Of a stretch of 64,000 nt of DNA, positions 28,550-64,000 are shown one piece after another. Location: the NCBI GenBank assembly GCA_964638715.1, contig CAZWZF010000008.1, positions 92,109 through 156,108 of the forward strand, given 5' to 3'. The translations under genes were made by a program, and so were the position numbers. How positions within the stretch are numbered: the stretch's first letter is position 1; each line of letters starts with the position of its first letter. Under the pieces are notes generated by a model. That model saw only the letters and a list, made by a program, of their open reading frames with translations. It was not told where the DNA came from and did no database searches. This DNA is from an uncultured bacterium. GTDB lineage: Bacteria; Armatimonadota; Hebobacteria; CAIYQO01.

Positions 28550-29611
28550 TTATCTGATAATTAATTTACGCAATGCTTTGTCATTCACCCATCCCTGCGC
28601 ACTGGCGAACCAGAAACGGGTTTCGGAAGTTCCCTGTTTTAATAAATCACCGGCAAAATCAACGTAATCCGGATAATCTTTGTTCTCACCGAAAAGAAAT
28701 GGAATATATATTATATCATCACCAAATAGCCGATGAATTTCTTTAAACGGCGTAAATGGATAATGGAACTCCAGGCTGTGTATTTTTATTCCAGACTCTT
28801 TTAATGCCGGTAGATGTTGCGCATAACTGCCGCAGCAATGAATTTGTAAACCGCCGAACGCATCCGCAATTCGGCGCAGACAGGGAATCTCAAAATCACG
28901 GTAAATATCCGGACTGAGCAACGGCATCATATCCTGAGTCAGTGACGCTCCCAATTCCTCCGGTAAAAATGTATAGGGCCAAATGCTGCCGATAACTTTC
29001 CCACCACCTATTTCTTTGCGAAATCGTTTGTGATATTCAATCAATGTGGTAGTGATGGAATCCAACGCAGCGTGAATTGCATCCGGTTCCTCATACATGG
29101 TAATCATCAACTCAGTCTGCTCCATCACCAGTGCCAGTGTATTCATCGGTCCCTGAAAATCCGGGGTGCGGGTAAATATCGCGTCAGACTGTAATTTGTC
29201 ACAAACTAACCAGTATAAATCAACCGCCATTTTAAAATCAGAATCTTCATACGAACAAGCCTGTAATTTTGGGAGATCATTAACGTCATTAATTACCGAT
29301 TCTATATGCACCCCACCGCCTTCCGCGGGTGGTATCACCTTGCCGCCATACATTTTAGCGGTACTGATGGTGCCGAAATCCGGATATATCGCCGGTAATA
29401 TAAACTGCTCATCAGACTCAATGTCAGCACGAATGCATTCCGCGGCAGCAGTTGCCACTTCATCCAAATTGAAATGTTCACGATCCAACATTTGCCGGTA
29501 AGCCGGTGGAACAACCATGCTGACTATTGGCCCGGTGATTTCTCCCTGCCAATATGACCTATAATATTCCAGTGTTTCTTTATAATTTGCAATTTGGTTA
29601 ACGGCGGTCAT
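28550..29611 (-). CDS. Uroporphyrinogen decarboxylase (URO-D)-like family protein.
   Basis: Size ~350 aa. Motif LQIHCCGSY parallels the h-H-x-C-G motif seen in the three other URO-D-like ORFs at the right end (MFHSCGAI, FLHTCGPT, LHMHSGG). Confidence 0.6.
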   Translation of the reverse strand: MTAVNQIANYKETLEYYRSYWQGEITGPIVSMVVPPAYRQMLDREHFNLDEVATAAAECIRADIESDEQFILPAIYPDFGTISTAKMYGGKVIPPAEGGGVHIESVINDVNDLPKLQACSYEDSDFKMAVDLYWLVCDKLQSDAIFTRTPDFQGPMNTLALVMEQTELMITMYEEPDAIHAALDSITTTLIEYHKRFRKEIGGGKVIGSIWPYTFLPEELGASLTQDMMPLLSPDIYRDFEIPCLRRIADAFGGLQIHCCGSYAQHLPALKESGIKIHSLEFHYPFTPFKEIHRLFGDDIIYIPFLFGENKDYPDYVDFAGDLLKQGTSETRFWFASAQGWVNDKALRKLIIR

Positions 29612-33233: not shown

Positions 33234-34544
33234 TTAAATATTTGGCGGTGTTACCCATTCTTTATTTTTGCGGATTATAATGTTTTGTGGCGGTGCAAGC
33301 AAACGTGGTTTAATGTCTGCAAAATCAAGGGTGTTTGGCTGAGTATCGCCTTGTGCGCACATCGAGCCTGCCACACCTGCCGACTGTCCAATTTGCGCCA
33401 GGATACATTGCACCCGGTATGATGCCATCGCCAGATGAGTACCACTCATATGCTTACCGACCACCATTATGCCGTCATAATCACGTGGAATAAGTGAACG
33501 ATATGGTATGCCATAAGGCTGCGGTTCCGGGAAATCTGACATTCCTTTTACCTTTTCGCTCCAAATATCCACACTGCGCTGAGTAACATGCACGCTGTCA
33601 TCCGGCACAATACCATTAAAGATATCTTCACTGGTAATTACCTTTTCTCCCATTATACGCCATTGTTCCCGCACCCCAAGTTTTGGAGCAAGATGAACCG
33701 CGTAACCATTTTTTCTCAATAAGATAATATCTTCACTCATCATATTCAGAGCTTCCCGTTGCGCGGTTGCCAATATTCCCGGTTCGCGGGTATCAGCACA
33801 TCGCACTTTGCATCCCCAATGCAGATAAGCACCAATATTTCGTTCTTTCAATCCTTCTATATCGCCTTTAGGCCAACCCTCACCGGATTCCAGTGGAAAA
33901 GAGAGCTTTAATTGACGGAAATCAAAATGCGGTACATTACCGATTTTCTGGCTAATATATTTCCACGTGCATAATTGTACATGGTCAGTGCGTTCCATAG
34001 GAGCAACACCTTCGCCAAAATCGTCCCTGCTGTCTTCGCCATAACGTCCATCCATACCAGAATTAACGCAAAGATTGCCGACACCGGTCGCTTCAATGGT
34101 GACTTTCGCTTTTATCTGCTGTTCTTTGCCGTCCGCACCACGCCAGATCGCGCCAGTCACCCGGCGGCGATTACCGGCATCTTCCACCATCAGCCTTTCT
34201 ACCCGTACCCCACAACGAACAGTGATATTTTTTTCTGCCGTCAGCATTCGTGACAGTACCATCAGATAATCACCGGGCATATACCAAAAGTCCCACCATC
34301 TACCCGGTTTGCGCTCTGTCAGCGGATAGTTCTTGTCCAACTCATTGCATAACTCGGTAATTACACCTGACCGTGGACCGCCATCAAGCATCAGAACATA
34401 TTGATCCATTGCCGCGCCGCCGGGAACCGCGTCCTCTTCCAATAAAATTACTGATGCTCCGGCACGCGCCGCGCCAATTGCCGCCGGCCAACCCGCAGCA
34501 CCGGCACCTATAACTAAAACATCTGTTTCGACTATTGTATGCAT
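33234..34544 (-). CDS. FAD-dependent oxidoreductase (GxGxxG Rossmann N-terminus; PF12831-like family).
   Basis: DVLVIGAGAAGWPAAIGAARAGASVILLEED (dinucleotide-binding motif). C-terminal ...AQIGQSAGVAGSMCAQG parallels ...TGQAAGTAAALS in the right-end paralogs. Confidence 0.8.
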   Translation of the reverse strand: MHTIVETDVLVIGAGAAGWPAAIGAARAGASVILLEEDAVPGGAAMDQYVLMLDGGPRSGVITELCNELDKNYPLTERKPGRWWDFWYMPGDYLMVLSRMLTAEKNITVRCGVRVERLMVEDAGNRRRVTGAIWRGADGKEQQIKAKVTIEATGVGNLCVNSGMDGRYGEDSRDDFGEGVAPMERTDHVQLCTWKYISQKIGNVPHFDFRQLKLSFPLESGEGWPKGDIEGLKERNIGAYLHWGCKVRCADTREPGILATAQREALNMMSEDIILLRKNGYAVHLAPKLGVREQWRIMGEKVITSEDIFNGIVPDDSVHVTQRSVDIWSEKVKGMSDFPEPQPYGIPYRSLIPRDYDGIMVVGKHMSGTHLAMASYRVQCILAQIGQSAGVAGSMCAQGDTQPNTLDFADIKPRLLAPPQNIIIRKNKEWVTPPNI

Positions 34545-47403: not shown

Positions 47404-47431
47404 AATAAATACCCCCTTAATAAAAATATTT

Positions 47432-47445: not shown

Positions 47446-47587
47446 GAATATTGCTAATATTAATTATACCACTGTGTTTGTATGGTGTAAATAGGAATTT
47501 AAAAGAATTTAAAAATAAAAAATCGGGGTGGCTTGCACACCTTAATAGGCAATAGAGCCACCCCTAAATAATTGTATTCGATTCAGA

Positions 47588-48730: not shown

Positions 48731-48753
48731 TATCAGTCTCCTCTTAATTTATT

Positions 48754-48800
48754 GTACCAGATGGTACGGTCAGTAATCAATTATCGCAGTTTGCGATAAT
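48754..48800. promoter_or_regulatory. Two short inverted repeats, GTACCA-GA-TGGTAC and ATTATCGCA-GTT-TGCGATAAT, in the 74-nt spacer between DUF1559 genes 4 and 3.
   Basis: Read directly. Could be an internal terminator/attenuator or an operator within the array. Confidence 0.3.
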
Positions 48801-48804
48801 CATG

Positions 48805-51425: not shown

Positions 51426-52289
51426 ATGAATAACAAACCATTTGAAAAATATTCTTTAGCGGAATTGCGACGGATTACCGCTTTGCTGACTAATATTATC
51501 CCGACAATTTCCCTTGGGTCGCGGTATATTCGGTTACGCGATTTGCGGCTTCATTATTCTCCTGCTAATGTTTCATCCGGTCAGCATACTCATGATACAT
51601 CAGAAGCAGTTCTTTTATTATCCGGTTCAGTTACATATACCTGGCAAGTTCCACATTTGCTAAATATTGGCGGATCTATTGTTTTCCCTCCTGATTGTAT
51701 GCATGAATGGAATACTGACGATAATGACGCTTTACGATTTGTTTTCTGGTACGAAGATGATTTATTAAAGAATTATCAGGATACCCAACAATCACCTCAT
51801 CGTCCAGAGTTAGCATGGGAAACGCGCGCTTTATTCAATGACGTGCGTGAAGCCCGCCCAGGTTGGCGATTCCGTTCACAGGCTCGTTTAGGTGTAATTC
51901 TTTCCGAATTATTAGCATTGCAACATACAGTAACATTAGCCAGTGACATGATATCGCAACAAGATTATTCAACATCTGTTGATGCATTTATTCGTGCTAA
52001 TTATTTTAAACCGCTAACCTTAAAAGAAATAGCGGATGCTATCGGAATTAGCGAACGAACATTATCCCGTCGATTCAGAGAAGAAACCGGCGTTAGTGTA
52101 ATGCATAAATTAGATGTTTTTAGAATGGAAAAAGCCGGTGAATTGCTTGTTGATACCATTTTGCCTTTAAGTGAAATAAGCAAGTTAATCGGAATAATTC
52201 ATCCAGGCTATTTTGCTATAAAATTTAGACATTACTCAGGAATGACTCCTTCTCAATATAGGCAATTCCACCGATCTGGAAAATTATAG
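51426..52289 (+). CDS. AraC-family transcriptional regulator (N-terminal cupin-type sensing domain, C-terminal double HTH). Only plus-strand gene.
   Basis: LKEIADAIGISERTLSRRFREETGVSV...SEISKLIGIIHPGYFAIKFRHYSGMTPSQYR is a canonical AraC HTH pair. Confidence 0.85.
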   Translation: MNNKPFEKYSLAELRRITALLTNIIPTISLGSRYIRLRDLRLHYSPANVSSGQHTHDTSEAVLLLSGSVTYTWQVPHLLNIGGSIVFPPDCMHEWNTDDNDALRFVFWYEDDLLKNYQDTQQSPHRPELAWETRALFNDVREARPGWRFRSQARLGVILSELLALQHTVTLASDMISQQDYSTSVDAFIRANYFKPLTLKEIADAIGISERTLSRRFREETGVSVMHKLDVFRMEKAGELLVDTILPLSEISKLIGIIHPGYFAIKFRHYSGMTPSQYRQFHRSGKL

Positions 52290-52435: not shown

Positions 52436-53839
52436 TTATTTTCTAACTGTTAGTTCTTCAAATGCAGGTTCAACATCTCTATCAATTTCAAGTTGCTTAA
52501 TTAATAGTTTTGCATCAAGCAACTTGGGTGAAACATCAGCATTTATACTTAGCGCCGCCGCCGTCCCGGCCGCTTGTCCTGTAGCCATACATGTTTGTTG
52601 AATACGCAGGCTTGATTCGGCAATATGTTCTGCGGAAATACATCTGCCTGCAACCAGAAGATTATCAACATTAATTGGAATTAAACTGCCATATCGAATA
52701 TCAAAATAATCTCCAGTCTTAAATCTTTCATGACGTATTTTATAACTTTCAGATTCCCTATCAACCGCAGGTGCTGTATAACTGTCAGCTGGCCAAATAT
52801 CAATATCCCATGAGCTTCGTGCCACCCCATCTGAATATTTATTAAATTCAACTGCGTCTTTTTCAGTTGCCGTGGCTAATCCATGAATCCGACGCGAAGA
52901 ACGCAAACCAATATGTGAAGAAGTATCAACAAGATAGGAATTTTCACATCCCGGCACATAATTCTTATAATAATCTGCTACCTGCCATGCCTGTTCGCGT
53001 CCTTCACGTTCTGCACGGGTAAAATCAAATGGATCCAGCGGATTCACTTTTAACACGCGACTTGTCACCAGCAGTAATTCATTTCTATATGACGGCATTT
53101 GCCACATCCACCATTGAGCATAACCTTTGACACGACCCGTTGTAATTACAGGTGTGGTATATTTACCGCTTTTCATTGCAGCCTGAAATCCATCTTCTAT
53201 CTGCTGTGCAAACTCAGGAGTGTTGAAATTTTCCGGCTTAATCGCGTTGCCAATTCGCAGAACTTTTGTGCATGCCATCGCCCATGGATTTTTCCCATCT
53301 CCCTGATCCCAAGGAACTCTGGCATAATTACATACTATCGCGTCTCCGGTAGCGTCAATCACCTGCTTAGCGGATATAAAACCAGTTCCCGCCTTTGTTT
53401 CAACAGTAATTCCAATGATAGTATTATTTTCTACTATCGCTCCGGAGCAATACGCATGATGCAGGATATCAGCACCTGCCTCTGTTAACAGGTCATCCCA
53501 TACATACTTTACGACTTCCGGGTCAACGATACCCCGAATTTGTCCACTGCCTATACCATCAAGTTTTTCAGAAATCCCGCCGCGTTTTTTCAAACCACGC
53601 GCATATTCATGCCAGATACCTTGAAAATCCACACCATTAGTGCTGAGTACAACACATACAAGCTGTGATACGGTGGCGCCGCCCAGATAGCCGTCTTTTT
53701 CGATAATCAGCGTTTTTGCGCCAAGCCTTGCTGATGCTATTGCTGCCGCACACCCCGCCGGCCCGCCGCCGCAGACGACGACATCATATTCACCGAGTAC
53801 GGGGATATCACGCGCGGGTTCTTGAATGGTAGTTTTCAT
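52436..53839 (-). CDS. FAD-dependent oxidoreductase (PF12831-like), AT-rich paralog.
   Basis: IPVLGEYDVVVCGGGPAGCAAAIASARLGAKTLIIEKDGYLGG. The track start at 53878 overlaps the upstream paralog. The internal ATG (MKTTIQEP) at 53839 abuts the upstream stop. Confidence 0.8.
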   Translation of the reverse strand: MKTTIQEPARDIPVLGEYDVVVCGGGPAGCAAAIASARLGAKTLIIEKDGYLGGATVSQLVCVVLSTNGVDFQGIWHEYARGLKKRGGISEKLDGIGSGQIRGIVDPEVVKYVWDDLLTEAGADILHHAYCSGAIVENNTIIGITVETKAGTGFISAKQVIDATGDAIVCNYARVPWDQGDGKNPWAMACTKVLRIGNAIKPENFNTPEFAQQIEDGFQAAMKSGKYTTPVITTGRVKGYAQWWMWQMPSYRNELLLVTSRVLKVNPLDPFDFTRAEREGREQAWQVADYYKNYVPGCENSYLVDTSSHIGLRSSRRIHGLATATEKDAVEFNKYSDGVARSSWDIDIWPADSYTAPAVDRESESYKIRHERFKTGDYFDIRYGSLIPINVDNLLVAGRCISAEHIAESSLRIQQTCMATGQAAGTAAALSINADVSPKLLDAKLLIKQLEIDRDVEPAFEELTVRK

Positions 53840-55272
53840 ATTGTCTTCCTTTGCGGATTGATTGCGATCAAGCCGCATAGTTCCGGGAATGCCGGCTCGA
53901 TGTCGCGGTCCTTTTCCAATTGTGCAACCACGAGCGCCGGATCGAGTTCACGTGGAGTTGTGTCCGCCTGCAGGCTTAGCGCCGCCGCAGTCCCTGCCGC
54001 CTGACCTGTTGACTGGCAGGTTTGCTGGATTCGCAGGGATGCCTGGGCGGTGCGTTCGGCGGAGATGCAACGTCCTGCCACCAGCAGGTTATCGACACCG
54101 GCAGCCACCAGGCAGCCATAACGAATATCGAAGAAATCACCCGCAAGCATTTTGGCTTTCCGCAACTGATAGGCATCCGATTCCCGATCCACGGCAGGTG
54201 CACTGTAACTCTCCGCCGGCCAAATATCGATATCCCAGGAACTGCGGGCGATACTATCTGCGTATTTACGGAACAACAACGCGTCGTCGCCCGTCACCGT
54301 CGCCATGCCGCGGATGCGCCGGCTGTCGCGCAGACCAATGTGGGCACTGGTATCCAGCAGGTAAGCCTGTGCATAGCCTGGAGCGAAACGTTTCAAGGCA
54401 TCAGCACATTGCCAGACCTGCTCGCGCCCTTCGCGTTCGGCGCGGGTGAGATCCCACGGATCGAGCGGATTGACTTGCAGCACACGGCTGGCGAACACGT
54501 TCATCTCTGTCCGGTACGGCATCACACTCGGATGCACCCAGTTTGCCATACCATAGCTGATGCCGCGGCCATTAGCCAGAACCGGCGTGTCATACTCGCC
54601 ACGAGCGACAGCAATCGCCACAGCCTCTTTAGCTGCCAGCACCGCCTCCACCGAGTAGCCCTCTTCCGGCCAGTGAACATTGCCCATACGGAAAACCTTG
54701 GTCAAGGATTGACCCCAGGTATGAGTTCCGTCACCCTGCTCCCAGGGAACACCCGCCGCCGCGCAGATAGCACCGTCCGCCGTGCAATCAATAACCCGTT
54801 TGGCCAGAATCGCCTGCCGTCCGGCACGGGTCTCGACCACTACTCCGCGACAATCCCCGTCCTCGACGATGGCATCGGCGCACAAGGCATGCAGTAATTG
54901 CCGCGCACCCGCCGCCATCAGCAGATCGTCCCAAGCATACTTTACCACTTCGGGATCGACACCACCGCGAAACTGAGGTGGCTGCCCCACCAGCGCACAG
55001 GCTCCTTCACGCTGCCGCAACGCGCGAATCCACTCGTGCCAGATGCCTTGAAAATCCACGCCGTTGGTACTGAGAATATGGCTCACCAGTTGCGAGACCG
55101 TCGCTCCACCCAGGTAGCCATCTTTCTCGATGAGGAGAGTCTCCGCGCCAAGTCGAGCCGCGGCAATCGCCGCCGCACACCCCGCCGCACCGCCGCCGCA
55201 GACGACGACATCGAATTTACCGAGTACGGGGATCTCGCGGGCAGGTTCGTTCACTGTTTGTTGCTCTTTCAT
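53836..55272 (-). CDS. FAD-dependent oxidoreductase (PF12831-like), GC-rich paralog directly adjacent to the AT-rich one.
   Basis: IPVLGKFDVVVCGGGAAGCAAAIAAARLGAETLLIEKDGYLGG. Collinear with 52436..53839 but with strongly G/C-biased third codon positions. Confidence 0.85.
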   Translation of the reverse strand: MKEQQTVNEPAREIPVLGKFDVVVCGGGAAGCAAAIAAARLGAETLLIEKDGYLGGATVSQLVSHILSTNGVDFQGIWHEWIRALRQREGACALVGQPPQFRGGVDPEVVKYAWDDLLMAAGARQLLHALCADAIVEDGDCRGVVVETRAGRQAILAKRVIDCTADGAICAAAGVPWEQGDGTHTWGQSLTKVFRMGNVHWPEEGYSVEAVLAAKEAVAIAVARGEYDTPVLANGRGISYGMANWVHPSVMPYRTEMNVFASRVLQVNPLDPWDLTRAEREGREQVWQCADALKRFAPGYAQAYLLDTSAHIGLRDSRRIRGMATVTGDDALLFRKYADSIARSSWDIDIWPAESYSAPAVDRESDAYQLRKAKMLAGDFFDIRYGCLVAAGVDNLLVAGRCISAERTAQASLRIQQTCQSTGQAAGTAAALSLQADTTPRELDPALVVAQLEKDRDIEPAFPELCGLIAINPQRKTI

Positions 55273-55295
55273 ATTGTTCCTCTTTCATTATTCTT

Positions 55296-56699
55296 TCAGC
55301 CACGCAACGCCTCCGCGTCCACAATGGCACCTTGGGATCGCAATGCCGTTCGGAGCGTGGCGATGTCAACGGCTGCGAACGACCGATCTAACGTGACGAC
55401 CTGCGCCGCCGCCAAACCAGCCGCTTCGCCCATGGCCATCACCGGCCCCATCACTCGCATCGGACCGAGTACATCGCGTTCGACCGAAACGGCTCGCCCC
55501 GGGCAGATCACATTTCGCAGTCCTCTGGGAACCATGATCCGATAAGGGATCGGCACAACAGGCGGTTTAGAAACGCCATGCATAGGTTGCGTGCCGTCGC
55601 TTTTGGCCAGATCCCAACCGTAAGGGGTGAAACCAATGGTGTCCGGGAACTCACGCCCGTCCCGTACATCCGCCACCGTCAGCCGATACTCGCCGGTAAT
55701 CCGCCGGGTCTCGCGTACCCCAAGATCCATTGCCACCGCGCGAATCCGAGCGTTGGCGCACCCGGGATAGTGACGCTGGAACAGGCGAAGCGTTTTTTCA
55801 TTTCTGTCGCGCACCGCCACCAGAGCGCCGGTACGTGACGCGGAATCGGTGCCGTCCACTCCCGGGAACGGCAGGCCGTTGACCATGAATGACCCATACC
55901 GGGGCATCTTGACAAAGATCGTAATGCTATAATTAAAGCAGTCCTCCCCTTGGTTGCGGAGTTTGGTTAGGAGTTTCTTGAACCGCGGATCGTCTTCGCG
56001 CACGACATAATCCATCAACGCGGCTTCGTCCACATTGTCGAGATGGAAAATGAGGCTGACGACACACATCTCCCCACTCTTTTCGTCACCCTTCACGAAC
56101 TCGCATCCCGCCTGCGCCGCGACATCGGCGTCGCCAGTGGCGTCCACGAACGCGGTTCCTTCCACGGCAAACAGCCCCTCTTTGCCAGCAAGCACGACAT
56201 GAGTCACCCGGCCGCAATCGGTGATTACGTCGGCAACATGCGTCTGAAGAAGGATTTCGACGCCCGCGGCAATCAGTTTCTGTTCGATAAACGACGCCAT
56301 GGCGAACGGGTCAAACGGAATGCCGTCAATCAGCCCTTTGTATTGTCCGTAGGGGATGTAGGGAACATCTGCAAAATCTTCCGCTCGCGGTATGACAGCA
56401 ATACCCAGTGCCGCCGCCTCCTGGATGAATTCCCGGCAGATGCCGCCGACGACATACTGCGTCCCATTATTCATCCTGACGCCAAGCCAATGCGAGACCA
56501 AACCCGCGGTTCCCATGCCGCCCACCACGCCTTGCCGCTCAACCAGCAAGACGGAAAGCCCGCTTCGTCGAGCGGCCAGCGCGGCCGAGAATCCGGCCGG
56601 GCCGCCGCCACACACCACCACATCGTATCGCCCATGTACCGGAAGGTTCCGATTGATTGCCACTGTGCCACTGCTGTTGCCATTATTCTTATTCATCAT
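55296..56699 (-). CDS. FAD-dependent oxidoreductase (PF12831-like).
   Basis: LPVHGRYDVVVCGGGPAGFSAALAARRSGLSVLLVERQGVVGGMGTAG. C-terminal ...GEAAGLAAAQV. Confidence 0.85.
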   Translation of the reverse strand: MMNKNNGNSSGTVAINRNLPVHGRYDVVVCGGGPAGFSAALAARRSGLSVLLVERQGVVGGMGTAGLVSHWLGVRMNNGTQYVVGGICREFIQEAAALGIAVIPRAEDFADVPYIPYGQYKGLIDGIPFDPFAMASFIEQKLIAAGVEILLQTHVADVITDCGRVTHVVLAGKEGLFAVEGTAFVDATGDADVAAQAGCEFVKGDEKSGEMCVVSLIFHLDNVDEAALMDYVVREDDPRFKKLLTKLRNQGEDCFNYSITIFVKMPRYGSFMVNGLPFPGVDGTDSASRTGALVAVRDRNEKTLRLFQRHYPGCANARIRAVAMDLGVRETRRITGEYRLTVADVRDGREFPDTIGFTPYGWDLAKSDGTQPMHGVSKPPVVPIPYRIMVPRGLRNVICPGRAVSVERDVLGPMRVMGPVMAMGEAAGLAAAQVVTLDRSFAAVDIATLRTALRSQGAIVDAEALRG

Positions 56700-57805
56700 C
56701 TGCTCCTATAACCTCGTGAATGATCCCGGACGAAACGCAATAATTCTTCACCCTCACCACGCGACGCCACTTCAGCGCGCAGGACGATGCGCCCTTTGCT
56801 CAGTGTGCCGATGTGCTGGCGAATTTCTGCAGGTGAGGCCGATACGATCAGCGGCTTCAAGCCCACTACATCCAGAACGTCATCGAGTTTTGCCATCACC
56901 GGCTTGTTGACATCGCTCACCAGTTGCAGAAAGGCAATTCCCGGCAGATCCACCACATTCGGCAATTGATGCAGGCCGCCCGAATGCATGTGCAACACAG
57001 TACCTGACCGGTGTGTGGTCAACCGCTCCAGCCATGGCCGCTCAGCTTCCCTGAATGTGTCGGGGCTAATCTGATTCGAAGAATCGATTGTCGTAATCAG
57101 TCCCGCACCGGGAGCGAACACGTTATAGCCCCACCCATAAGCGGCCCAGCCGGACAGAGACTGATTCGCGCTGTAATCCGGTAAGCCGCCGTTGATGGCA
57201 TCAATCGCCGCGCTGATGAAATCCAGCAGAGCGGGCAGACGTTCCGGCTCAGAGACGACGTCCATGTACAAGTCGTTTCCGCGAAGATCCCAAGCCAGGT
57301 CCAGCAGCCCATTGTGCTGCGGCGGTTGGATGGGAATCCGCCCATTGGCGGCGTCAATGGCGAACTGGTACCCATCGCGATAAAACCGCCACCAGAAATT
57401 GTTGTCGTCAAGGATACAGGACAATTCACTCACCTGATCGATCGAGGTGAGGCAATGCTCCGCCCACGCCGAATGTTCCGTGCTCTTGATTAGCCGGTCT
57501 TTGATAATCAAACTGTAAAGATATGGTGTCAACAGCAACTTGATGGCGGGAATATAGTCGTCGTCCAACGGATGCAATTTGTTCTCCTCGATCACCTCGT
57601 CAACCCATCCCTGGTAAATGCGCAACCGGTGTTCATCCTGTCGTATATCCAACCGCCAAAAATGTCGAATCAGGTCGTGAATCTGGAACAGATTATGAGC
57701 CTGGTCATGACATCGTATATTGACGAGTAATGCCGGTTCCTGGACGGCATGAAATCGTTCATACCGCGCCAAGCGTGTTGCAAGATCAATTGTACTGTTA
57801 TTCAT
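56696..57805 (-). CDS. URO-D-like family protein (divergent).
   Basis: ~369 aa, HMHSGG motif aligned with the h-H-x-C-G motif of the other URO-D-like ORFs. ATGA-type overlaps on both sides. Confidence 0.45.
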   Translation of the reverse strand: MNNSTIDLATRLARYERFHAVQEPALLVNIRCHDQAHNLFQIHDLIRHFWRLDIRQDEHRLRIYQGWVDEVIEENKLHPLDDDYIPAIKLLLTPYLYSLIIKDRLIKSTEHSAWAEHCLTSIDQVSELSCILDDNNFWWRFYRDGYQFAIDAANGRIPIQPPQHNGLLDLAWDLRGNDLYMDVVSEPERLPALLDFISAAIDAINGGLPDYSANQSLSGWAAYGWGYNVFAPGAGLITTIDSSNQISPDTFREAERPWLERLTTHRSGTVLHMHSGGLHQLPNVVDLPGIAFLQLVSDVNKPVMAKLDDVLDVVGLKPLIVSASPAEIRQHIGTLSKGRIVLRAEVASRGEGEELLRFVRDHSRGYRSR

Positions 57806-59184
57806 GCTATATCTACCACACTAATAATTGCGCCATTTTCATGCAAGGTATTTCGTAAAGTTTCAATATCTACATCTGCAAATGAAACATTCTGTGATAC
57901 AACCTGCGATGCTGCAACGCCTGCTGCCTCACCCATTGCCATTACTGGCGCCATTACCCGCAACGGACCAAGTACATCACGTTCCACGGAAATCGCACGT
58001 CCCGGACAGATCAGATTTTTCACTACTTGTGGTACCATGACCCGATATGGAATAGGCGTAGGGTATGGCGCCTTGCGCCCTTCCATCGGCTGATGGCTTG
58101 GCCGTTTCGGGTCTGGCAAGTCCCACCAATAGCCGGAAAGACCAATGGTATCTGCGAACACTTTTCCTGTGACCAAGTCGTCGACGGACAGGACATAATC
58201 ACCGACAATCCGTCGCGTCTCGCGCACCCCCAGCAGTGTGGCCACCGCTTTGATGCGGGCATGGGCACAGCCCGGGATGTACTTGCGCATCAAACCCACA
58301 AGTTGTTGTGTCTCCTCACGCCCCCGAATCATCCCCCGCGTCAGCGACCGCGGATCCGTACCGTCGATGCCGACCAGCCGCGAGGTGTTGATCATCATCA
58401 CGCCCGGTTCCTGCAACTGCACGCTGATGAAGATCTCATAGGGGAAGGTCCATTCCCCAATGGCGCGCAAAGCCAGAATCAATTCCTTGAGCCGTGGCGA
58501 CTCCTTGTCCTGAATGTAGGCAGATAGTGCGGTCTGGTCGACGTTGTCGACATGGAACATCAGGGTCGTCGGCGTCATCAGGTGATCACCATCACGCCCC
58601 AGAACGGTTGGACATCCGGCGTACGCGGCCACATCGGCATCGCCGGTGGCATCGACCACGGCACGTGCAGCAACCACCTGTATCCCAGACTTATTGGCGA
58701 TGAGCAGGTGGTTAATTTGCCCATCCACCACCATGGCATCGACCACCCGGGTTTCAAACAGGATTTCCACCCCATCCGTCATCATTTTGCGGTCAAGATA
58801 CGCCGCCATGGAAAAGGGATCAAAAGGCACGCCATGCACCAGACCATTGAACCATCCATGGGGTGGGTATTTCACGCCGGCGTCTTCCCGCGGCAAAAGC
58901 GCGAAGCCTTGCGCGGCAGCTTCTTCGGATAGTTCACGAAATATTCCGCCTACTATCCATTTCCCATCCGCGGTGCGACCACCAAGCCAATGGCTTACCA
59001 GCCCCGATGTGCCCATACCGCCCAGTTGTCCCTGGCTTTCAATTATCAGTACAGACATACCAGATCTTCGCGCTGACAACGCTGCCGCGCAGCCTGCTGG
59101 TCCCCCGCCGCAAACGACAACATCATATTCCCCGAAAACGGGGATGTCACGGGCTGGTATGTGAATGGTATGTTCGATAATCAT
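57802..59184 (-). CDS. FAD-dependent oxidoreductase (PF12831-like).
   Basis: IPVFGEYDVVVCGGGPAGCAAALSARRSGMSVLIIESQGQLGGMGTSG. The track start at 59250 overlaps the upstream gene. ATG (MIIEHTIHIP) at 59184 follows a GGGAGAA Shine-Dalgarno. Confidence 0.85.
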   Translation of the reverse strand: MIIEHTIHIPARDIPVFGEYDVVVCGGGPAGCAAALSARRSGMSVLIIESQGQLGGMGTSGLVSHWLGGRTADGKWIVGGIFRELSEEAAAQGFALLPREDAGVKYPPHGWFNGLVHGVPFDPFSMAAYLDRKMMTDGVEILFETRVVDAMVVDGQINHLLIANKSGIQVVAARAVVDATGDADVAAYAGCPTVLGRDGDHLMTPTTLMFHVDNVDQTALSAYIQDKESPRLKELILALRAIGEWTFPYEIFISVQLQEPGVMMINTSRLVGIDGTDPRSLTRGMIRGREETQQLVGLMRKYIPGCAHARIKAVATLLGVRETRRIVGDYVLSVDDLVTGKVFADTIGLSGYWWDLPDPKRPSHQPMEGRKAPYPTPIPYRVMVPQVVKNLICPGRAISVERDVLGPLRVMAPVMAMGEAAGVAASQVVSQNVSFADVDIETLRNTLHENGAIISVVDIA

Positions 59185-59185
59185 C

Positions 59186-59935
59186 TTACCATTCTCCCTT
59201 TTTACCAAAGTTTTCTTTAGCTGCTTTGTTAAACTCAGCGCCTGCGGCATTAATTCTGTTTAATATTTCTTCAACAGTGCATCCTGCGGCACCACGTGCT
59301 GCCGGAATTACTGTATTGCATTCGTTGCTGTCCATAAACTTTGCCGCTTCCAATAATCCGGATTCGTCTTCATGTGGAATAACCAGAAATCCATGTTTAT
59401 CTGCATGAATAAGTTGTCCTGGTTTCACTGTTCTGCCAAAAACTTCCACTTCGCAGTTCCAATGTACCGGACATGAAAAAGAATGACCTACGCATAACCT
59501 GCGCGCAATTGCTTTAAATCCGGCGTTATTCATCTCGTCGAGATCCCGGATAGCTCCATCGGTAATAGTACCAACACAACCCAAGGCGCGGTGAATATTA
59601 CTGTTTACTTCACCCCAGAAAGCACCAATTACGTTTGGCTTGTCCATATCTTGAACAACTACAATCTTTGGTCCCGGTATGCTGGCAATATATGTGCGAT
59701 ATTCACTCCAGGCATTGGGATTGTCATGCGGATGCTTCGGATTGCTTGGCTCGAATTGCACCGTCGCCGCGTAGCCGACCATCGGTCCCATTTGTGGCAT
59801 AAAGTCGCGACATTCCTCGATATTAAAACCTTCTTTAGAAATATCGTGACTGGTTATTTGTTCCCAACCATTATAGATGGTCGGGGTATTCCAGCGTTTT
59901 AGCTGGAGAAGTTCTGCATGGGTTAACATAATCAA
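59186..59935 (-). CDS. RraA-like protein (RraA / 4-hydroxy-4-methyl-2-oxoglutarate aldolase / oxaloacetate-decarboxylase fold family).
   Basis: VVVVQDMDKPNVIGAFWGEVNSNIHRALGCVGTITDGAIRDLDEM, the characteristic G-x-x-x-DG-x-x-RD region of RraA-family proteins. Lower GC than its neighbours. Confidence 0.7.
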   Translation of the reverse strand: MIMLTHAELLQLKRWNTPTIYNGWEQITSHDISKEGFNIEECRDFMPQMGPMVGYAATVQFEPSNPKHPHDNPNAWSEYRTYIASIPGPKIVVVQDMDKPNVIGAFWGEVNSNIHRALGCVGTITDGAIRDLDEMNNAGFKAIARRLCVGHSFSCPVHWNCEVEVFGRTVKPGQLIHADKHGFLVIPHEDESGLLEAAKFMDSNECNTVIPAARGAAGCTVEEILNRINAAGAEFNKAAKENFGKKGEW

Positions 59936-61008
59936 TTTCCTCCCGAAGTGTTATAGGCCGTCTCGTATAATGCCATGATGTTCGCGGTCGGGACGTCCGT
60001 CTGCAATACGTGGCTGGGCGCCAGGATAAATCCGCCATCAGCGCCAAGGATGTGCATCATTTCCCGTACCGTATGGGTAACATCTGCCATTGATCCTTGC
60101 GGCAAGACGTACTGCGTATCGATAGCACCATGCAGGCAGATGCGTGAACCGAATTGTGTTTTCAACAGGGTGGGATCCATCCCTTTCGCAGCCACCTGAA
60201 TAGGATCAAGGATATCCACCCCCATGGTGATAATACGCTCAATCAACGGCAGAATTGCGCCACAAGAGTGAAACATTACCTTCACATCATGACTATGCGC
60301 CATGTCAATGAGTTTTGTCAGACGTGGCGCGAAAAAGCGGTCGAATATATCCGGACCGATCAACAAGCGATCCTGCATGCCGAGGTCGTCGGCAATACGC
60401 AATATGTCAATTTGTCCCGGTGCCGCGGTGAACATGCGATCGAAGAAGGCGACATAATAATCAGTATACTGATCGAGGAGAAAATCAGCCATTTCCGGAA
60501 TCACCAGCAAATCCATCAGTAATTGATCGAGCCCGCGGAGAAAACTCGGATGCTGCCAGATACTGGCACCAGTGGCCATGATGGCGAATCCATGCCAGGT
60601 GTCAAGTCGGGCGGCAAAATCGCTGAAGTCGAACCAGTCCACTGTTGGCCAACGATGCGCCGCCAATTGTTCCACCGTGTCGCATTCTTCCAATACGAAG
60701 TCACAGAAACAGGTCTCAATGCCGGTCGATGTCTGCATATCCTTGGTTCGCCAACCCCAGTAGTTCTCAGTCACGCCATCAGCCAGTGACCGCTCTTTTG
60801 GGATTGGTCCACGGTAGATAGGGTCGACCACTCCGCGCAGATCCACTATGTCCACATGCAACCGTTCCAGCAACTCCCGATGGGAGGATGTACCCAAATC
60901 GCGGTGAAGCCGGGTAAGCGTAGCGGAATTGGCACTAAAATCCAGCGGTATACGATCGGGTTTCACATGATTGATCGTCGTCAAAACTCGTTCTCGGGAA
61001 TTTTTCAC
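59932..61008 (-). CDS. Uroporphyrinogen decarboxylase (URO-D) family protein.
   Basis: ...VKVMFHSCGAILPLIE...GGFILAPSHVLQTDVP. Typical URO-D/MtaA-like (beta/alpha)8 family motifs. Confidence 0.75.
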   Translation of the reverse strand: MKNSRERVLTTINHVKPDRIPLDFSANSATLTRLHRDLGTSSHRELLERLHVDIVDLRGVVDPIYRGPIPKERSLADGVTENYWGWRTKDMQTSTGIETCFCDFVLEECDTVEQLAAHRWPTVDWFDFSDFAARLDTWHGFAIMATGASIWQHPSFLRGLDQLLMDLLVIPEMADFLLDQYTDYYVAFFDRMFTAAPGQIDILRIADDLGMQDRLLIGPDIFDRFFAPRLTKLIDMAHSHDVKVMFHSCGAILPLIERIITMGVDILDPIQVAAKGMDPTLLKTQFGSRICLHGAIDTQYVLPQGSMADVTHTVREMMHILGADGGFILAPSHVLQTDVPTANIMALYETAYNTSGGN

Positions 61009-61018
61009 GCTTCGCTCC

Positions 61019-61471
61019 TTATTCCGCCAGCACCTTAACTACGATCTTCAGCACCGGCACGGAACTCTCGTATGCAAGACATGGCATGTGGGCATCTTCT
61101 GGGAAGAAAACCAGAAAATCACCGGCTCGTGCAGTCACAAAGTCGCCAGTTCCAGCAAATAATAGATAGTCTTTGTCTTCTGTATAGGACTGCGTTTCCG
61201 TCAGGTTGGCGACGTTTGTCCAGCCAAGAGTCTCGATCCCGGACGCCACGAATTGCACGTCGATGTAGCGGCGATGTGCTTCCCACAACCCCATCTCACG
61301 AGATTTGGTGTCGTATCGTTGCACCATGGCATAGACCGTGTCGCCATCAATGTCGTAACGACCGGACTCCAACGTGGAGAAATCGTTCGCGGCCAGGTAG
61401 TCGAACGCTTTTTTAAGGTTTTCGCTGAGTTCCTGATAGAGTCCAGCATTCTTCAGTTTATCTATAATCAT
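61019..61471 (-). CDS. YhcH/YjgK/YiaL family protein (NanQ-type sugar anomerase fold; DUF386).
   Basis: MIIDKLKNAGLY...HRRYIDVQFVASG...GDFLVFFPEDAHMPCLA...LKIVVKV parallels E. coli YhcH (HARYLDIQIVLKG, GDFVVFYPGEVHKP, KAVVKM). The track start at 61543 is a GC-rich extension, so the ATG at 61471 was used. Confidence 0.8.
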   Translation of the reverse strand: MIIDKLKNAGLYQELSENLKKAFDYLAANDFSTLESGRYDIDGDTVYAMVQRYDTKSREMGLWEAHRRYIDVQFVASGIETLGWTNVANLTETQSYTEDKDYLLFAGTGDFVTARAGDFLVFFPEDAHMPCLAYESSVPVLKIVVKVLAE

Positions 61472-61493
61472 CTTTTGGTAAATCCTTTCAATA

Positions 61494-62681
61494 TTACGAC
61501 AGCATACTCTGCAAGAATGCCCGTCCCTCAGCGGTTGTCCCACCCGTATTTAGTAAGAAGCCGCCGCCAGCACTGATGCGGCGCAGCCAGCCGGCCGTCA
61601 AATTCTCCTCGTCCTGTACCGTGCGGTTGTCCGGCAATATGAACGATTGGAGGGCAACGCGTCCTTGGAGTACGGTCTTCTGCGCTTCCAAGTCGGCGGT
61701 GGTCTTGGAGAAACCGTTGACAAAGGTGGTCTCGAATCCGGCGAATCCGGGTAAATCCAGCAACATACTACCGCACTGCAGAGTCGGGCCGCAGGTATGC
61801 AGAAAGATTGGCCCGAGTTGCTCCGACATCATCTGCCAGGAACTGCGGGCGACTTCCAGATAGGTGTCGGGCTTGATTACTGAGATGTAATCATCCACCA
61901 ACAACCCGCGCACCCAGACTGGCTGTACACCGCGTTGCCGCGTACGTGCCAGTGCAGGATTCCCAATCACCTGCCACATCGCCTTACTGATGTCAATGAT
62001 CATGCCGGTGAGCAATTCGGAGAACTGGCGCACCAACTCCGGTTCCGTGAGGCAAGCGACCAGATAGTCTTCCTGATCCATAAGGCGCACCGCGTTGGTG
62101 GTTGGCCCCTGCATCTGCGGATATACGATAGGCAGCCGACTCTCGGTCGCCTCGACGAGGAAGCGGCAGGTTTCAAGAATGCCGCGGCAGGGTTCGACGG
62201 CCATTGGATCAGGCCGTGACAGCTTGGGCAGGTCCGTCGCCAGGTCGCGAATCAGAAACGCTCTGGGAATGACCGCTCCATCGGCGGAGGCATCGAACTC
62301 CGCCCCCAGCATGCGGGGGATGAGGTCAGAGGTGCCGTAACCGGGATAGAGCATCGGCACGTAGTCCGACTCCGGCAGCGCTTCAAGATTGAGGATCATG
62401 CCCATGAGTTGCCAGGCCAGTGTGTGATCCAGATTGTTCTTAGCCCACTGCGCTGGCTTCTGTTCCAGTCCGGCTGCCGCATCGGTGACGTCATACTGGA
62501 TGAACGGCCGATCCGGCGTCTTGAAGCGAAAGATATCGTCGGCGCGACGTTCGGTTGCCGCGATTCGTTCCTGGTGCGGCGCAAGCGCGTCAAAGAAGAC
62601 ACGGACAGCATCCTCCCGGTTCGACGCATGAGAAAATGCGTTTAGAAAAGATTGTGTAGTTGTTTTAGATGTCATGTTCAT
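61494..62681 (-). CDS. URO-D-like family protein.
   Basis: ...GPIFLHTCGPTLQCG... (h-H-x-C-G motif). The track start at 62780 overlaps the upstream gene. The internal MNMTSKTTTQSF at about 62681 abuts the upstream stop at 62678. Confidence 0.6.
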   Translation of the reverse strand: MNMTSKTTTQSFLNAFSHASNREDAVRVFFDALAPHQERIAATERRADDIFRFKTPDRPFIQYDVTDAAAGLEQKPAQWAKNNLDHTLAWQLMGMILNLEALPESDYVPMLYPGYGTSDLIPRMLGAEFDASADGAVIPRAFLIRDLATDLPKLSRPDPMAVEPCRGILETCRFLVEATESRLPIVYPQMQGPTTNAVRLMDQEDYLVACLTEPELVRQFSELLTGMIIDISKAMWQVIGNPALARTRQRGVQPVWVRGLLVDDYISVIKPDTYLEVARSSWQMMSEQLGPIFLHTCGPTLQCGSMLLDLPGFAGFETTFVNGFSKTTADLEAQKTVLQGRVALQSFILPDNRTVQDEENLTAGWLRRISAGGGFLLNTGGTTAEGRAFLQSMLS

Positions 62682-64000
62682 TTTTCCTGTGAATAGCCGA
62701 AAAGAGTGGCCGAACGCAAAGCGACGTGAACCAGCACTCGGTGCCCAGCGAGTGATCGCAGGTTCGCGTGAGTCTTCCATTTAACAGGAGCCCGCAGACT
62801 GTCCCCGCGGACTGGTTGGCAGTCTGACAGCGCGAAACCTGGCAGCGGCTGGTCGTTTTCATCGAGCAGTGCGACGCGCGCCTCGCCGATGGTTCCGGCA
62901 TCGAGGTTGAGCGTCAGTGCCAAACCGGTGAGAGGGGCGGCAACAAAGGTCAGTTGGCCCTCGCCCGCCTTCGCGACCGCACCGACCAAGCGGTCCCGCT
63001 TCTGCACGAAGCGCCAGATTTCGCCATCGCCATCCGCCATGCGCTTGTCGCCCTGGCCATGAGTCGTATCGAGCACTGCTCCGTATTGCCACAACTCGTC
63101 CCCTCGCTCGATCAGCCCGAGTCCGAGGAAGACCATCCCCGGCTTGCGCCCCAGCAGGGCCGCGGTCACATACGGTGACCTATCAAACCGCTCCCACTGC
63201 CTGCCGTCCCGGCTGGTGGCAAGGTGCGCTACACAGACACCATCATTTTGGTACGGGCCGTTATCCGCTTCAGGGGCGTGGTTATAGAACGTGGGAAACG
63301 CAACATATAACGGCGGGCGGGTCGGGTAAACCTGTGGCATCAGAGTATACACGTCGGTCTCTGGCGGATCGCTTTTGTCACAGGCGAACACAACCGGCAC
63401 TTCGTCGATGAAATGGGGCAGCCGCTGCCGGGTGGGGAACGGACCATCCTTACCGGACGGCGTCAGGCCCACCGGCCGATCCAGCGCGTCCGCTTCCCAC
63501 CGCCCCACCTTGCGCTGCCGGGAGCGATTCGATCCCGGCACCCAGACACGGACATAACCCGCATAGCGACCCGACAGCGGATCAGCGAATACGACGTTTT
63601 GGGTGTCTGACTCGAAGGCCAACAGTGCCTCGGTGTCCCGGGTCCAGCGCCATCCATCTGGAGAAGTCCAGCGAAAAACGCCCTGGCCAAACAAATTTCC
63701 AACGAAAGCGTAACCAGTGGTCGTCCGCAGCACGGATCCCTCCATGGTCGGCAGATCGGTCAGGTTATTCTTCGCCGACCCTTCGAAGGAGCGCAACCCC
63801 AGTTCCGGGCGCTGCCAGATCACCCCGTCCGTCGATTCGGCGTAGGCGAGTCCCTTGAAGGTCGCGGAGCCCCGGCAGCCATACCACAGGCGCAACGTGC
63901 CGCCGTCATCGATGACCGTCAGGTACAGTCCGAGCATGCGCTCCCAGTTCCCGGCGACGCCAAAACAACGCTCGGCACGTATCGGGGGTTGCACGCGTAT
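62678..64000 (-). CDS. BNR/Asp-box repeat beta-propeller glycosidase, sialidase-like. Partial (N-terminus beyond window end).
   Basis: Two Asp-box motifs (AESTDGVIWQR, ATSRDGRQWERF; S-x-D-x-G-x-x-W). The frame is open to the last base of the window. The track start at 63994 is a GTG. Confidence 0.65.
   Translation of the reverse strand: MRVQPPIRAERCFGVAGNWERMLGLYLTVIDDGGTLRLWYGCRGSATFKGLAYAESTDGVIWQRPELGLRSFEGSAKNNLTDLPTMEGSVLRTTTGYAFVGNLFGQGVFRWTSPDGWRWTRDTEALLAFESDTQNVVFADPLSGRYAGYVRVWVPGSNRSRQRKVGRWEADALDRPVGLTPSGKDGPFPTRQRLPHFIDEVPVVFACDKSDPPETDVYTLMPQVYPTRPPLYVAFPTFYNHAPEADNGPYQNDGVCVAHLATSRDGRQWERFDRSPYVTAALLGRKPGMVFLGLGLIERGDELWQYGAVLDTTHGQGDKRMADGDGEIWRFVQKRDRLVGAVAKAGEGQLTFVAAPLTGLALTLNLDAGTIGEARVALLDENDQPLPGFALSDCQPVRGDSLRAPVKWKTHANLRSLAGHRVLVHVALRSATLFGYSQEK

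Follow-up and report, generated by a model that had tools for sequence, protein, structure and literature searches.

An Armatimonadota operon of PF12831 flavoenzymes with URO-D-like, RraA-like and DUF386 proteins: a candidate finishing module for sialic-acid-like sugars

The stretch of DNA analysed here comprises 64,000 nucleotides of contig CAZWZF010000008.1 (assembly GCA_964638715.1), from an uncultured bacterium of the Armatimonadota, and is referred to below as the window. The whole of it forms a 64-kb island of sulfatases, lyases and glycosidases, and its last part is occupied by a dense operon that an earlier note, made from the sequence alone, had taken for an uncharacterised sugar-acid catabolic pathway. 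Ten consecutive minus-strand genes fill positions 52436-64000, in exactly the order which that note had given. Every long open reading frame (ORF) there is on the minus strand, the long plus-strand frames at 53862-55545 and 56043-56910, like that at 1549-5439, having no Pfam match, lying antisense to high-GC minus-strand genes and being most likely shadow ORFs, not genes. From upstream to downstream, the operon genes within the window are the following.

62678..64000, minus strand: 3' 440 codons of a protein of 479-508 aa, predicted as a five-bladed propeller plus beta-sandwich, glycosidase-like (AlphaFold2/Foldseek)
61494..62681, minus strand: URO-D_395, 395 aa, LHTCG motif (Pfam URO-D, 32.6 bits; weak MtaA/CmuA matches)
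61019..61471, minus strand: DUF386 protein (YhcH/YjgK/YiaL family), 150 aa (Pfam, 156 bits)
59932..61008, minus strand: URO-D_358, candidate MtaA-like TIM-barrel metalloenzyme (Pfam URO-D, 72 bits)
59186..59929, minus strand: RraA-like protein, 247 aa, or 249 aa with a TTG start at 59935 (Pfam PF03737, 80.9 bits)
57802..59184, minus strand: FAD_460, PF12831 flavoenzyme, no signal peptide
56696..57805, minus strand: X369, remote URO-D paralogue, 369 aa, HMHSGG in place of H-x-C-G (no Pfam or NCBIfam match)
55296..56696, minus strand: FAD_466, PF12831 flavoenzyme, 52% identical to FAD_460 (Pfam, 322 bits)
53836..55272, minus strand: FAD_478, PF12831 flavoenzyme, second subtype with 30% identity to FAD_460 (Pfam, 343 bits)
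52436..53839, minus strand: FAD_467, PF12831 flavoenzyme, last gene of the operon, 60% identical to FAD_478 (Pfam, 339 bits)

The operon runs beyond the window end and counts at least 14 genes, of which these ten are the 3' portion. As represented in other assemblies, this contig (L001) extends the operon upstream by a GH42/35-like (glycoside hydrolase, GH) gene, a DUF6259 gene (698 aa), a URO-D gene (410 aa, URO-D_410) and a 55-aa ORF. The whole order reads GH42/35-like, DUF6259, URO-D, 55-aa ORF, five-bladed-propeller glycosidase-like, URO-D and DUF386 in the 5' half, followed in the 3' half by URO-D, RraA-like, FAD, remote URO-D, FAD, FAD and FAD, where FAD denotes a PF12831 gene. When the likeliest start codons are assumed, the junctions within the window, nine in number, measure -4, +22, +10, +2, +1, -4, -1, +23 and -4 nt from upstream to downstream; in the first of them, the ATGA start of URO-D_395 overlaps the upstream stop. 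All nine are tight and four of the nine overlap, fewer than the earlier note had supposed when it described nearly all junctions as overlapping by 1-4 nt. Judging from these spacings, the operon is translationally coupled. A promoter and terminator scan returned terminator counts at chance level. Pfam places four of the proteins in PF12831 (FAD_oxidored, 322-343 bits), two in URO-D and one each in the DUF386/YhcH and RraA-like families, with no match for the 369-aa protein or for the last, window-truncated gene. In NCBIfam, the matches of the operon proteins are mostly below threshold, except for the DUF386 protein, which exceeds the TIGR00022 cut-off.

The exact 369-aa protein has been found with the same neighbours on contigs from at least six independent samples (ENA, the NCBI metagenome-assembled genome (MAG) GCA_037131695.1, JGI and Logan). 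Because it has been assembled independently so many times, the operon is not an assembly artefact. Its codon composition is uneven, with a GC content at third codon positions (GC3) of 0.32 for FAD_467, 0.39 for the RraA-like gene, 0.71 for the propeller gene and 0.57-0.69 for the other genes. This value shifts gene by gene even between neighbours that share an ATGA overlap, as with FAD_478 (0.63) and FAD_467 (0.32), whose proteins are 60% identical. Taken with the repeated independent assembly of the contig, this mosaic therefore points to cassette-wise horizontal acquisition.

The RraA-like protein has been the most productive lead. Its AIRDLDE segment aligns with GVRDTQT of 3NOJ, a 4-hydroxy-4-methyl-2-oxoglutarate/4-carboxy-4-hydroxy-2-oxoadipate (HMG/CHA) aldolase, and the catalytic Arg-Asp pair is present, for which reason an enzymatic role is likelier than one as a regulator of RNase E. 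Scores against enzymatic equivalogs stay far below their cut-offs (TIGR02798, 39.3 against 304.5; NF006731, 43.7 against 179), the match to 3NOJ is of about 29 bits, and the nearest structure, 3K4I, is itself uncharacterised. The protein is regarded as a candidate metal-dependent pyruvate-type aldolase or decarboxylase. Its orthogroup holds 6754 proteins at E<1e-10 (the best 120 being 74-94% identical) and more than 583 species-level genome loci (the best 80 being 69-96% identical). The orthogroup is exceptionally well conserved, its members being 70-96% identical across at least seven phyla, among them Armatimonadota, Verrucomicrobiota (Chthoniobacter flavus, Opitutaceae, Geminisphaera), Planctomycetota, Lentisphaerae (Victivallis vadensis), Bacillota (Paenibacillus), Bacteroidota (Maribellus, Chitinophaga, Prolixibacteraceae) and Chloroflexi.

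Neighbours within 10 kb were counted in the best 80 of these more than 583 loci by calling ORFs and searching them with hidden Markov models (HMMs), a clean HMM being used for BNR_2 because fusions of BNR_2 with PF12831 would otherwise merge the two families. The most frequent neighbours were 2-hydroxyacid dehydrogenases (2-Hacid_dh; 30/80), GH33-type BNR_2 proteins (29/80) and DHDPS/NanA-like proteins (21/80), followed by PF12831 proteins and NanM-kelch+SSS transporters (15/80 each), MFS proteins (14/80), sulfatases (13/80), the five-bladed-propeller family (11/80), URO-D-like proteins (8/80) and DUF386 (5/80). BNR_2 was present in 7 of the 8 loci bearing URO-D (Fisher p 0.003), 14 of the 21 bearing DHDPS (p 0.001) and 9 of the 15 bearing PF12831 (p 0.04), phylogeny and locus length being ignored in these tests.

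Several of these loci illustrate how the parts are combined. The closest relative of the operon, in a locus of another species labelled Armatimonadota (L011), reads URO-D, URO-D, DUF386, URO-D, RraA, BNR_2 (with a CRIP motif), FAD and FAD, and thereby keeps the order of a five-gene block (URO-D, URO-D, DUF386, URO-D, RraA). With this near-identical block, and with related arrangements in Victivallales, Planctomycetales, Lentisphaerae, Anaerolineales and Prolixibacteraceae, the gene neighbourhood has proved to be conserved across lineages, as the proposal of a common pathway in the earlier note supposed. In the Lentisphaerae locus GWF2_49_21, the order is BNR_2, RraA, URO-D, 2-Hacid_dh, four FAD genes and BNR_2, and a polysaccharide utilization locus of Prolixibacteraceae carries SusD, BNR_2, FG-GAP, URO-D, BNR_2, URO-D, RraA, BNR_2, URO-D, MFS, DHDPS and URO-D. 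A locus of sialoglycan type (L093) contains GntR, FAD, FAD, GH29, Gfo/Idh/MocA, DUF6807, 2-Hacid_dh, RraA, DHDPS, GDSL, GH38, GH3, BNR_2 and BNR_2. At the other extreme, a minimal three-gene unit lies among housekeeping genes (L094:7104-9747) and consists of GntR(FCD), BNR_2 (372 aa) and the RraA-like gene; no simpler setting for the sialidase-RraA link may exist. The GH33 proteins adjacent to URO-D genes have no signal peptide in loci of the Planctomycetes-Verrucomicrobia-Chlamydiae (PVC) type, of Armatimonadota and of Chloroflexi, and a lipoprotein signal in Bacteroidota. In a Prosthecobacter locus without URO-D (L042), the GH33 neighbour aligns over its full length with a Micromonospora sialidase (E 3e-28).

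Where sialidases have the Y/F-R-I-P motif, a subgroup of GH33-like proteins found beside RraA in Verrucomicrobia shows Y-H-I-P, with His in place of the initial Arg of the carboxylate-binding triad (L042:1870-3084, L017:1587-3092, L018:2906-4348, L064:10599-11975, L054 and L084). The GH33-like copies that adjoin URO-D genes, in contrast to this subgroup, retain the triad Arg.

The DUF386 protein scores 124 bits against TIGR00022 (cut-off 45.5) and 105.5 bits against the NanQ equivalog NF040884 (cut-off 160), and is a candidate sugar-acid anomerase, that is, a ring opener. The only characterised member of the family, YhcH of Escherichia coli, passes open-chain N-acetylneuraminic acid (Neu5Ac) to its aldolase (PMC8141875). 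Since YhcH supplies an aldolase with an open-chain sugar acid, the presence of an RraA-fold aldolase or decarboxylase beside DUF386 fits the same logic. In a Paenibacillus locus, RraA and DUF386 adjoin 2-Hacid_dh, DHDPS and an ABC transporter, and no glycosidase is found there.

The URO-D-like proteins are closer to MtaA-type metal-dependent methyltransferases than to decarboxylases. When the profile of the URO-D_358 family (57 members) was compared with the PDB, the best match was MtaA (4AY7, E 1.7e-12), followed by CdmB of Acetobacterium (9RUI, 7e-6) and uroporphyrinogen decarboxylase (UROD; 4WSH, 1.5e-5). Of the two activities that the earlier note had allowed for this fold, methyl transfer is therefore the nearer likeness and decarboxylation the weaker one. 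An identity as HemE was considered and rejected, given that HemE structures reach E 1.5e-5 or worse against 1.7e-12 for MtaA, and given the glycan-catabolism context. The FHSCG motif of URO-D_358 lies in register with the Zn ligands of MtaA (LHICG), and the third ligand, a Cys in MtaA (APGCG), aligns with a His (APSH). In the family, H247, D53, D208 and Q271 do not vary; Cys occupies position 249 in 45 members and Asp in 12, and position 333 is His in 46 and otherwise Gln or Asn. Such a pattern resembles a catalytic site for a divalent metal. URO-D_358, URO-D_395, URO-D_410 and URO-D_353, the last encoded elsewhere in the island, all have the His and the Cys of H-x-C-G, and X369 is without the Cys. 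The description of X369 as URO-D-like was sound insofar as it is a remote paralogue (25% identity to URO-D_395 over 146 aa, E 3e-6), but no Pfam or NCBIfam model recognises it and the motif Cys is missing. The URO-D_358 family is large, with 851 representative clusters at E<1e-30 (8748 at E<1e-3); in the best 150 representatives the match starts at about residue 2-3, hence there is no signal peptide.

Metagenome contigs, scanned with a narrow URO-D_358 alignment as anchor, gave 80 loci. Close relatives (at least 48% identity, on contigs of at least 6 kb) directly adjoin genes for FRIP-motif GH33, DHDPS/NanA-like and NanM-kelch+SSS proteins, and relatives at 40% identity or less have different contexts. 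Often, as in L096, L107, L110 and L113, the gene immediately upstream of the URO-D_358 match, at about 1.1 kb, encodes another URO-D paralogue (about 380 aa) with the motif GGGG(V/I)HSCG, and in L043 and L051 this paralogue precedes RraA. It may work with URO-D_358 as a pair or heteromer.

The four PF12831 proteins of the operon match the full profile, with an N-terminal GxGxxG FAD-binding fold. The flavoenzyme model is a two-domain flavoprotein fold of generic structural likeness (TM-score at most 0.48). They form two pairs (FAD_460 with FAD_466, and FAD_478 with FAD_467) that are about 30% identical to each other. Four Arg residues are conserved (R321, R325, R396 and R409) and would suit an anionic substrate. 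Orthologues of FAD_460 at 61-65% identity often carry twin-arginine (Tat) signal peptides, and the copies in the window have none. No conserved partners emerged from the contexts of these orthologues, some of which stand alone in unrelated neighbourhoods. In Verrucomicrobia MAGs, exported proteins combining BNR_2, Golvesin_C and FAD_oxidored domains, verified with Pfam, are encoded just upstream of the RraA-like gene (L068:2470-6156, L083:5531-9256, L046:1-3534 and also L046:5204-9268); one of them has two PF12831 domains, and their signal peptides are of Sec type, an unusual feature in flavoproteins. The fusion speaks for a functional link of PF12831 with sialidase-like domains. Exported forms would be unable to use NAD(P)H and may be oxidases or redox-neutral enzymes acting on glycans. 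The literature searched gave no activity for any PF12831 member, and we know of no member whose activity has been established. NanOx/YjhC, GH4 and GH109 are sugar enzymes that use NAD for transient oxidation, with folds other than that of PF12831. They are oxidoreductase-fold proteins of glycan or sialic-acid loci and are sometimes Tat-exported, as are PF12831 orthologues, and may thus serve as a lead.

Two short relics of PF12831 genes lie on the minus strand immediately upstream of two sulfatase genes, at 32821-33093 and 31164-31391. One, which ends in an overlap with the start of the sulfatase gene, retains just the Rossmann N-terminus (profile positions 9-56). In the other, profile positions 2-37 are fused to 424-459, the middle having been deleted. 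The relics suggest that the sulfatase genes took the place of flavoenzyme genes.

Nine of the ten family assignments in the earlier note were right. The exception is the gene at the window end, which had been called BNR sialidase-like and was thought to have seeded the operon, a role that its five-bladed GH-like fold and its lack of a BNR match do not bear out. The full-length protein, taken from L001, has an N-terminus beyond the window end that resembles a signal peptide, and it contains three Asp-box-like SxDGxxW motifs. Asp-boxes are known from several propeller GH families (PMC2716378). It matches no Pfam family, BNR and BNR_2 included, even at E <=5, and has no sequence relative in the PDB. 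Its AlphaFold model (pLDDT 93.3, from an alignment of 36 homologues) has as best Foldseek matches BT_0996 (GH137), GH32, GH43, GH130, GH117 and GH62, with TM-scores of 0.35-0.46 on the query and no family membership at sequence level. These five-bladed enzymes have a propeller with a C-terminal beta-sandwich, as does the model. A GH33 sialidase (six-bladed, BNR_2, with RIP motif and Arg triad) was considered for this gene and rejected, in view of the five-bladed matches and of the missing Pfam and PDB sequence matches. The 78 detectable homologues have no domain annotation; one is labelled GH32 by NCBI, another has a Tat signal, and fusions to GDSL esterase, kelch or methyltransferase domains are seen in some. 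On the model, the protein is glycosidase-like and not a sialidase.

Taking into account the gene families, their order and packing, the conserved block, the linkage of RraA-like and URO-D_358 orthologues to GH33 and NanA-like genes and the fusion of PF12831 with BNR_2, the operon is tentatively regarded as a module, largely of cytoplasmic enzymes, that finishes the breakdown of acidic sugars, sialic-acid-like or 2-keto-3-deoxy (ulosonic), on imported oligosaccharides, a reading to which a probability of roughly 0.45 is given. The glycosidase-like proteins would trim the oligosaccharide, and the PF12831 flavoenzymes and MtaA-like URO-D metalloenzymes would have as their target the acidic residue, the glycoside it forms or the decorations it bears, the multiple paralogues presumably handling multiple variants or positions. 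DUF386 would then open the ring of the released keto-acid sugar, and the RraA-like enzyme would cleave or decarboxylate the open-chain keto acid to yield pyruvate. The earlier note had likewise proposed a nonulosonic, keto-deoxy or otherwise acidic sugar. That part is strengthened by the RraA-like and URO-D_358 anchors, both of which lead to loci with GH33 and NanA-like genes, and weakened by the window itself, which has no GH33, NanA or transporter. It had further derived the sugar from sulfated glycans, a suggestion that nothing beyond the neighbourhood supports.

Several observations weigh against this reading of the operon as a finishing module. The window and the 10 kb upstream of it, checked through L001 with clean BNR_2, kelch-SSS and MFS HMMs, with DHDPS and with Pfam scans, contain no GH33, NanA-like lyase, 2-Hacid_dh, kinase, epimerase or sugar transporter, and for this reason the link to sialic-acid-type sugars comes entirely from orthologues elsewhere. 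The parts are modular and do not form one fixed pathway, URO-D being present in just 8 of the 80 RraA loci. No RraA-like gene occurs in the 80 loci anchored on URO-D_358 (0/80), so that each of the two is separately tied to sialic-acid-type loci, not obligatorily together. The FAD_460 orthologues, which also occur alone and are often Tat-exported, speak for chemistry at the glycan level or in the periplasm more than for a monosaccharide pathway in the cytoplasm. The co-occurrence p-values treat loci as independent in spite of their shared phylogeny and unequal lengths, and the GC3 range of 0.32-0.71 suggests that the operon was put together piecemeal.

A bolder form of the same proposal holds that the PF12831 and URO-D_358-type enzymes are two unrecognised carbohydrate-active classes that work together with GH33 on nonulosonic or ulosonic-acid glycans, with the RraA-like protein as a class II aldolase or decarboxylase for the keto-acid sugar set free. 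This is considered doubtful. It is equally speculative that the two classes would, for example, strip O-alkyl or other decorations or cleave glycosides through transient oxidation, as a widespread and so far undescribed branch of sialic-acid-type catabolism among environmental bacteria. The literature searched contains nothing that links PF12831, URO-D-like or RraA-like proteins to sialidases or glycan loci.

The kinship with MtaA also gives rise to an alternative in which the URO-D-like proteins would be corrinoid-dependent methyltransferases, of the MtaA/CmuA type or the methyltransferase I (MT-I) type of O-demethylases, and the operon would mainly serve sugar O-demethylation in an anaerobe, with O-methyl sialic, Kdo, fucose or galactose residues as substrates. 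MtaA and CdmB do outrank true UROD as solved relatives of the URO-D_358 family, and H-x-C-G aligns with the Zn ligands of MtaA. The carriers of URO-D loci are mainly anaerobic or facultative (Victivallales, Lentisphaerae, Anaerolineales and Prolixibacteraceae), and several paralogues per locus would match several methyl positions. The URO-D proteins also match the MtaA, MtbA and CmuA models of NCBIfam, albeit with a best score of 62.6 bits, far under the cut-off of 244. Moreover, the window and loci L001, L007, L009 and L043 encode no corrinoid (B12-binding, PF02310-type) protein, methyltransferase II (MT-II) or activase, and an Rfam search of the window and L001 gave no cobalamin riboswitch. 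The replacement of the third Zn ligand Cys by His, and of the motif Cys by Asp in 12 of the 57 members, has the look of a catalytic metal site rather than one for thiolate alkylation. A classical corrinoid-dependent demethylase role is thus possible but not favoured for these proteins, and an operon devoted chiefly to O-demethylation appears unlikely.

The lyases of the island lead to a different proposal, according to which the module would handle 4,5-unsaturated uronates and substitute for GH88, KduI and KduD. The flavoenzymes would act on the carboxy-enol-ether, and DUF386 together with the RraA-like protein would turn 4-deoxy-5-keto-uronate into pyruvate. In agreement with this, the island has PL8 and heparinase II/III-like lyases and no GH88 among ORFs of at least 150 aa, and in an Armatimonadota locus (L007) URO-D and RraA lie between heparinase II/III-like and PL8 lyases, with PF12831 nearby. 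That locus is a single case, however: PL8 or heparinase II/III homologues of the lyases in the window occur in 0 of the 80 RraA loci against GH33 in 29 of 80, and the generic structural likeness of the flavoenzymes speaks no more for this chemistry. The proposal is held to be improbable, and the sialic-acid-type finishing module is preferred to it.

It has also to be considered whether there is any single pathway, since the operon could be a mosaic of accessory paralogues that remove decorations or process glycans, exchanged as cassettes and each with its own substrate. The gene-to-gene variation in GC3, maintained even across ATGA overlaps, agrees with this view, as do the opposite codon compositions of FAD_478 and FAD_467 despite their 60% identity, the PF12831 relics ahead of two sulfatase genes, and the free recombination of the parts in other genomes, where FAD orthologues are found alone. 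On the other hand, the order URO-D, URO-D, DUF386, URO-D, RraA is maintained in L011, translational coupling through overlaps and gaps of 1-23 nt favours co-expression, and GH33, NanA-like and DUF386 recur as partners from two independent anchors, all of which makes a mere mosaic a poor prospect. Finally, PF12831 flavoproteins as helpers of sulfatases, through formylglycine maturation or oxidative desulfation in an operon that would chiefly be a desulfation accessory, appear very improbable, since despite the proximity of PF12831 and sulfatase genes in L091, L092 and the window (33234-34544 beside 31410-32828), FAD relics immediately ahead of two sulfatase genes and Arg clusters (R321, R325, R396, R409) that would suit an anionic substrate, the island already encodes formylglycine-generating enzyme (FGE)-sulfatase domains, no sulfatase adjoins the four flavoenzyme genes of the operon, the PF12831 fusions involve BNR_2 and not sulfatases, and sulfatases occur in only 13 of the 80 RraA loci.

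Outside the operon, the island encodes, according to Pfam, six S1 sulfatases, GH29, GH31, DUF5054 and three DUF4838 proteins, an FGE-sulfatase domain being fused to two of the latter. Its two lyases resemble chondroitinase ABC (PL8) and heparinase II/III, respectively, and a beta-helix protein is also present. Four prepilin-type/DUF1559 genes lie in tandem, and there are regulators of the AraC and LacI types as well as one more PF12831 gene, the fifth, and another URO-D gene. Those related to the operon are the following.

51426..52289, plus strand: AraC-type regulator (cupin plus helix-turn-helix; Pfam), convergent with the operon end and in the same position in L001-L003
50082..51290, minus strand: LacI-type regulator (Pfam)
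33234..34544, minus strand: FAD_436, fifth PF12831 paralogue (Pfam, 232 bits)
28550..29611, minus strand: URO-D_353, 353 aa, HCCG motif, beside the PL8 chondroitinase-ABC-like lyase (Pfam, 53 bits)

The AraC-type gene is a candidate regulator, as is the LacI-type gene for its neighbouring genes. Additional features of the island have been recorded on the minus strand. Two proteins of about 1200 aa (1639-5244 and 37083-40622) combine a GH20b-like N-terminus and DUF4838 with a C-terminal FGE-sulfatase (SUMF1-like) domain, and the fusion of a glycosidase-like module to a domain resembling the formylglycine-generating enzyme is an unusual architecture; the GC3 values of the two paralogues are 0.39 and 0.76. 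In four of the S1 sulfatases (14237-15670, 16992-18386, 29625-31151 and 31410-32828), the Pfam domain begins at residues 4-7 and there is no signal peptide, and these enzymes are apparently cytoplasmic, as are most enzymes of the operon. Cytoplasmic sulfatases have likewise been predicted in Kiritimatiellales (PMC6388578). The four tandem genes of DUF1559 proteins with a prepilin-type N-terminal methylation motif (45394-49950), one with an F5/8 type C domain, lie between GH31 and LacI and may encode glycan-binding pseudopilin-like proteins. Between a sulfatase gene and the PL8 gene there is an ORF of 1869 aa (19881-25490), whose sole domain signal is a weak CBM9 match.

PF12831 and URO-D-like proteins are abundant unassigned families in polysaccharide-degrading Verrucomicrobiota, Planctomycetota, Lentisphaerae and others, genomes through which complex glycans, acidic and sulfated, are in large part turned over in lakes, soils, oceans and guts. 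The neighbourhoods and fusions described here tie both families, together with the highly conserved RraA-like enzyme, to loci of sialidase and NanA type, and provide these families, which have had none, with testable substrates, namely sialic acids, KDN, Kdo and their decorated forms. Should these proteins prove to be new enzymes that remove decorations or cleave glycosides, they would constitute new classes in glycan catabolism, and part of the dark matter of glycan islands would be explained.

A sugar-acid catabolic operon within a glycan island is a known kind of system, but the enzyme set is not; in agreement with the earlier note, no characterised pathway of this composition was found in the literature searched. 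Among known systems, there is a likeness to the nan clusters (nanATEK-yhcH with nanM/nanS in E. coli, and GH33), in that the operon, too, pairs DUF386/YhcH with a gene of pyruvate-aldolase type, and the loci of RraA-like and URO-D_358 orthologues contain GH33, NanA-like DHDPS, NanM-kelch+SSS, GDSL esterase and GntR genes. It is nonetheless no known nan operon: NanA, NanK, NanE, NanT, GH33 and any sialic-acid transporter are absent from the window, the candidate aldolase has the RraA fold and not that of the class I DHDPS enzymes, and URO-D-like and PF12831 proteins belong to no described nan cluster. With the HMG/CHA aldolase/oxaloacetate decarboxylase LigK/ProA (3NOJ), the RraA-like protein has in common the domain, the Arg-Asp pair and a length of about 240 aa, in a context of glycan and sialic-acid type, unlike the aromatic (protocatechuate/gallate) degradation of LigK/ProA. 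MtaA (4AY7) and CdmB (9RUI) share with URO-D_358 the TIM-barrel fold and an H-x-C-G motif in register, and are its best profile matches. The genomic partners of the URO-D_358 family are, in contrast, sialidases and aldolases, the corrinoid partner not having been found at the loci examined. The propeller protein shares its predicted fold with the five-bladed glycoside hydrolases and phosphorylases (GH137 BT_0996, GH43, GH32, GH130 and GH117), without membership at sequence level. A proteogenomic study of Kiritimatiellales mentions neither PF12831 nor URO-D-like nor RraA-like families (PMC6388578), and the operon differs from the sulfatase-rich islands of PVC bacteria in having none of the usual carbohydrate-active enzyme or sulfatase families, save for the upstream GH42-like gene. 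The window as a whole nevertheless resembles such islands (Kiritimatiellales F1/F21, PMC6388578), as it likewise encodes sulfatases, GH29, GH31, PL8, FGE and DUF1559 proteins, many of the enzymes being without signal peptides.

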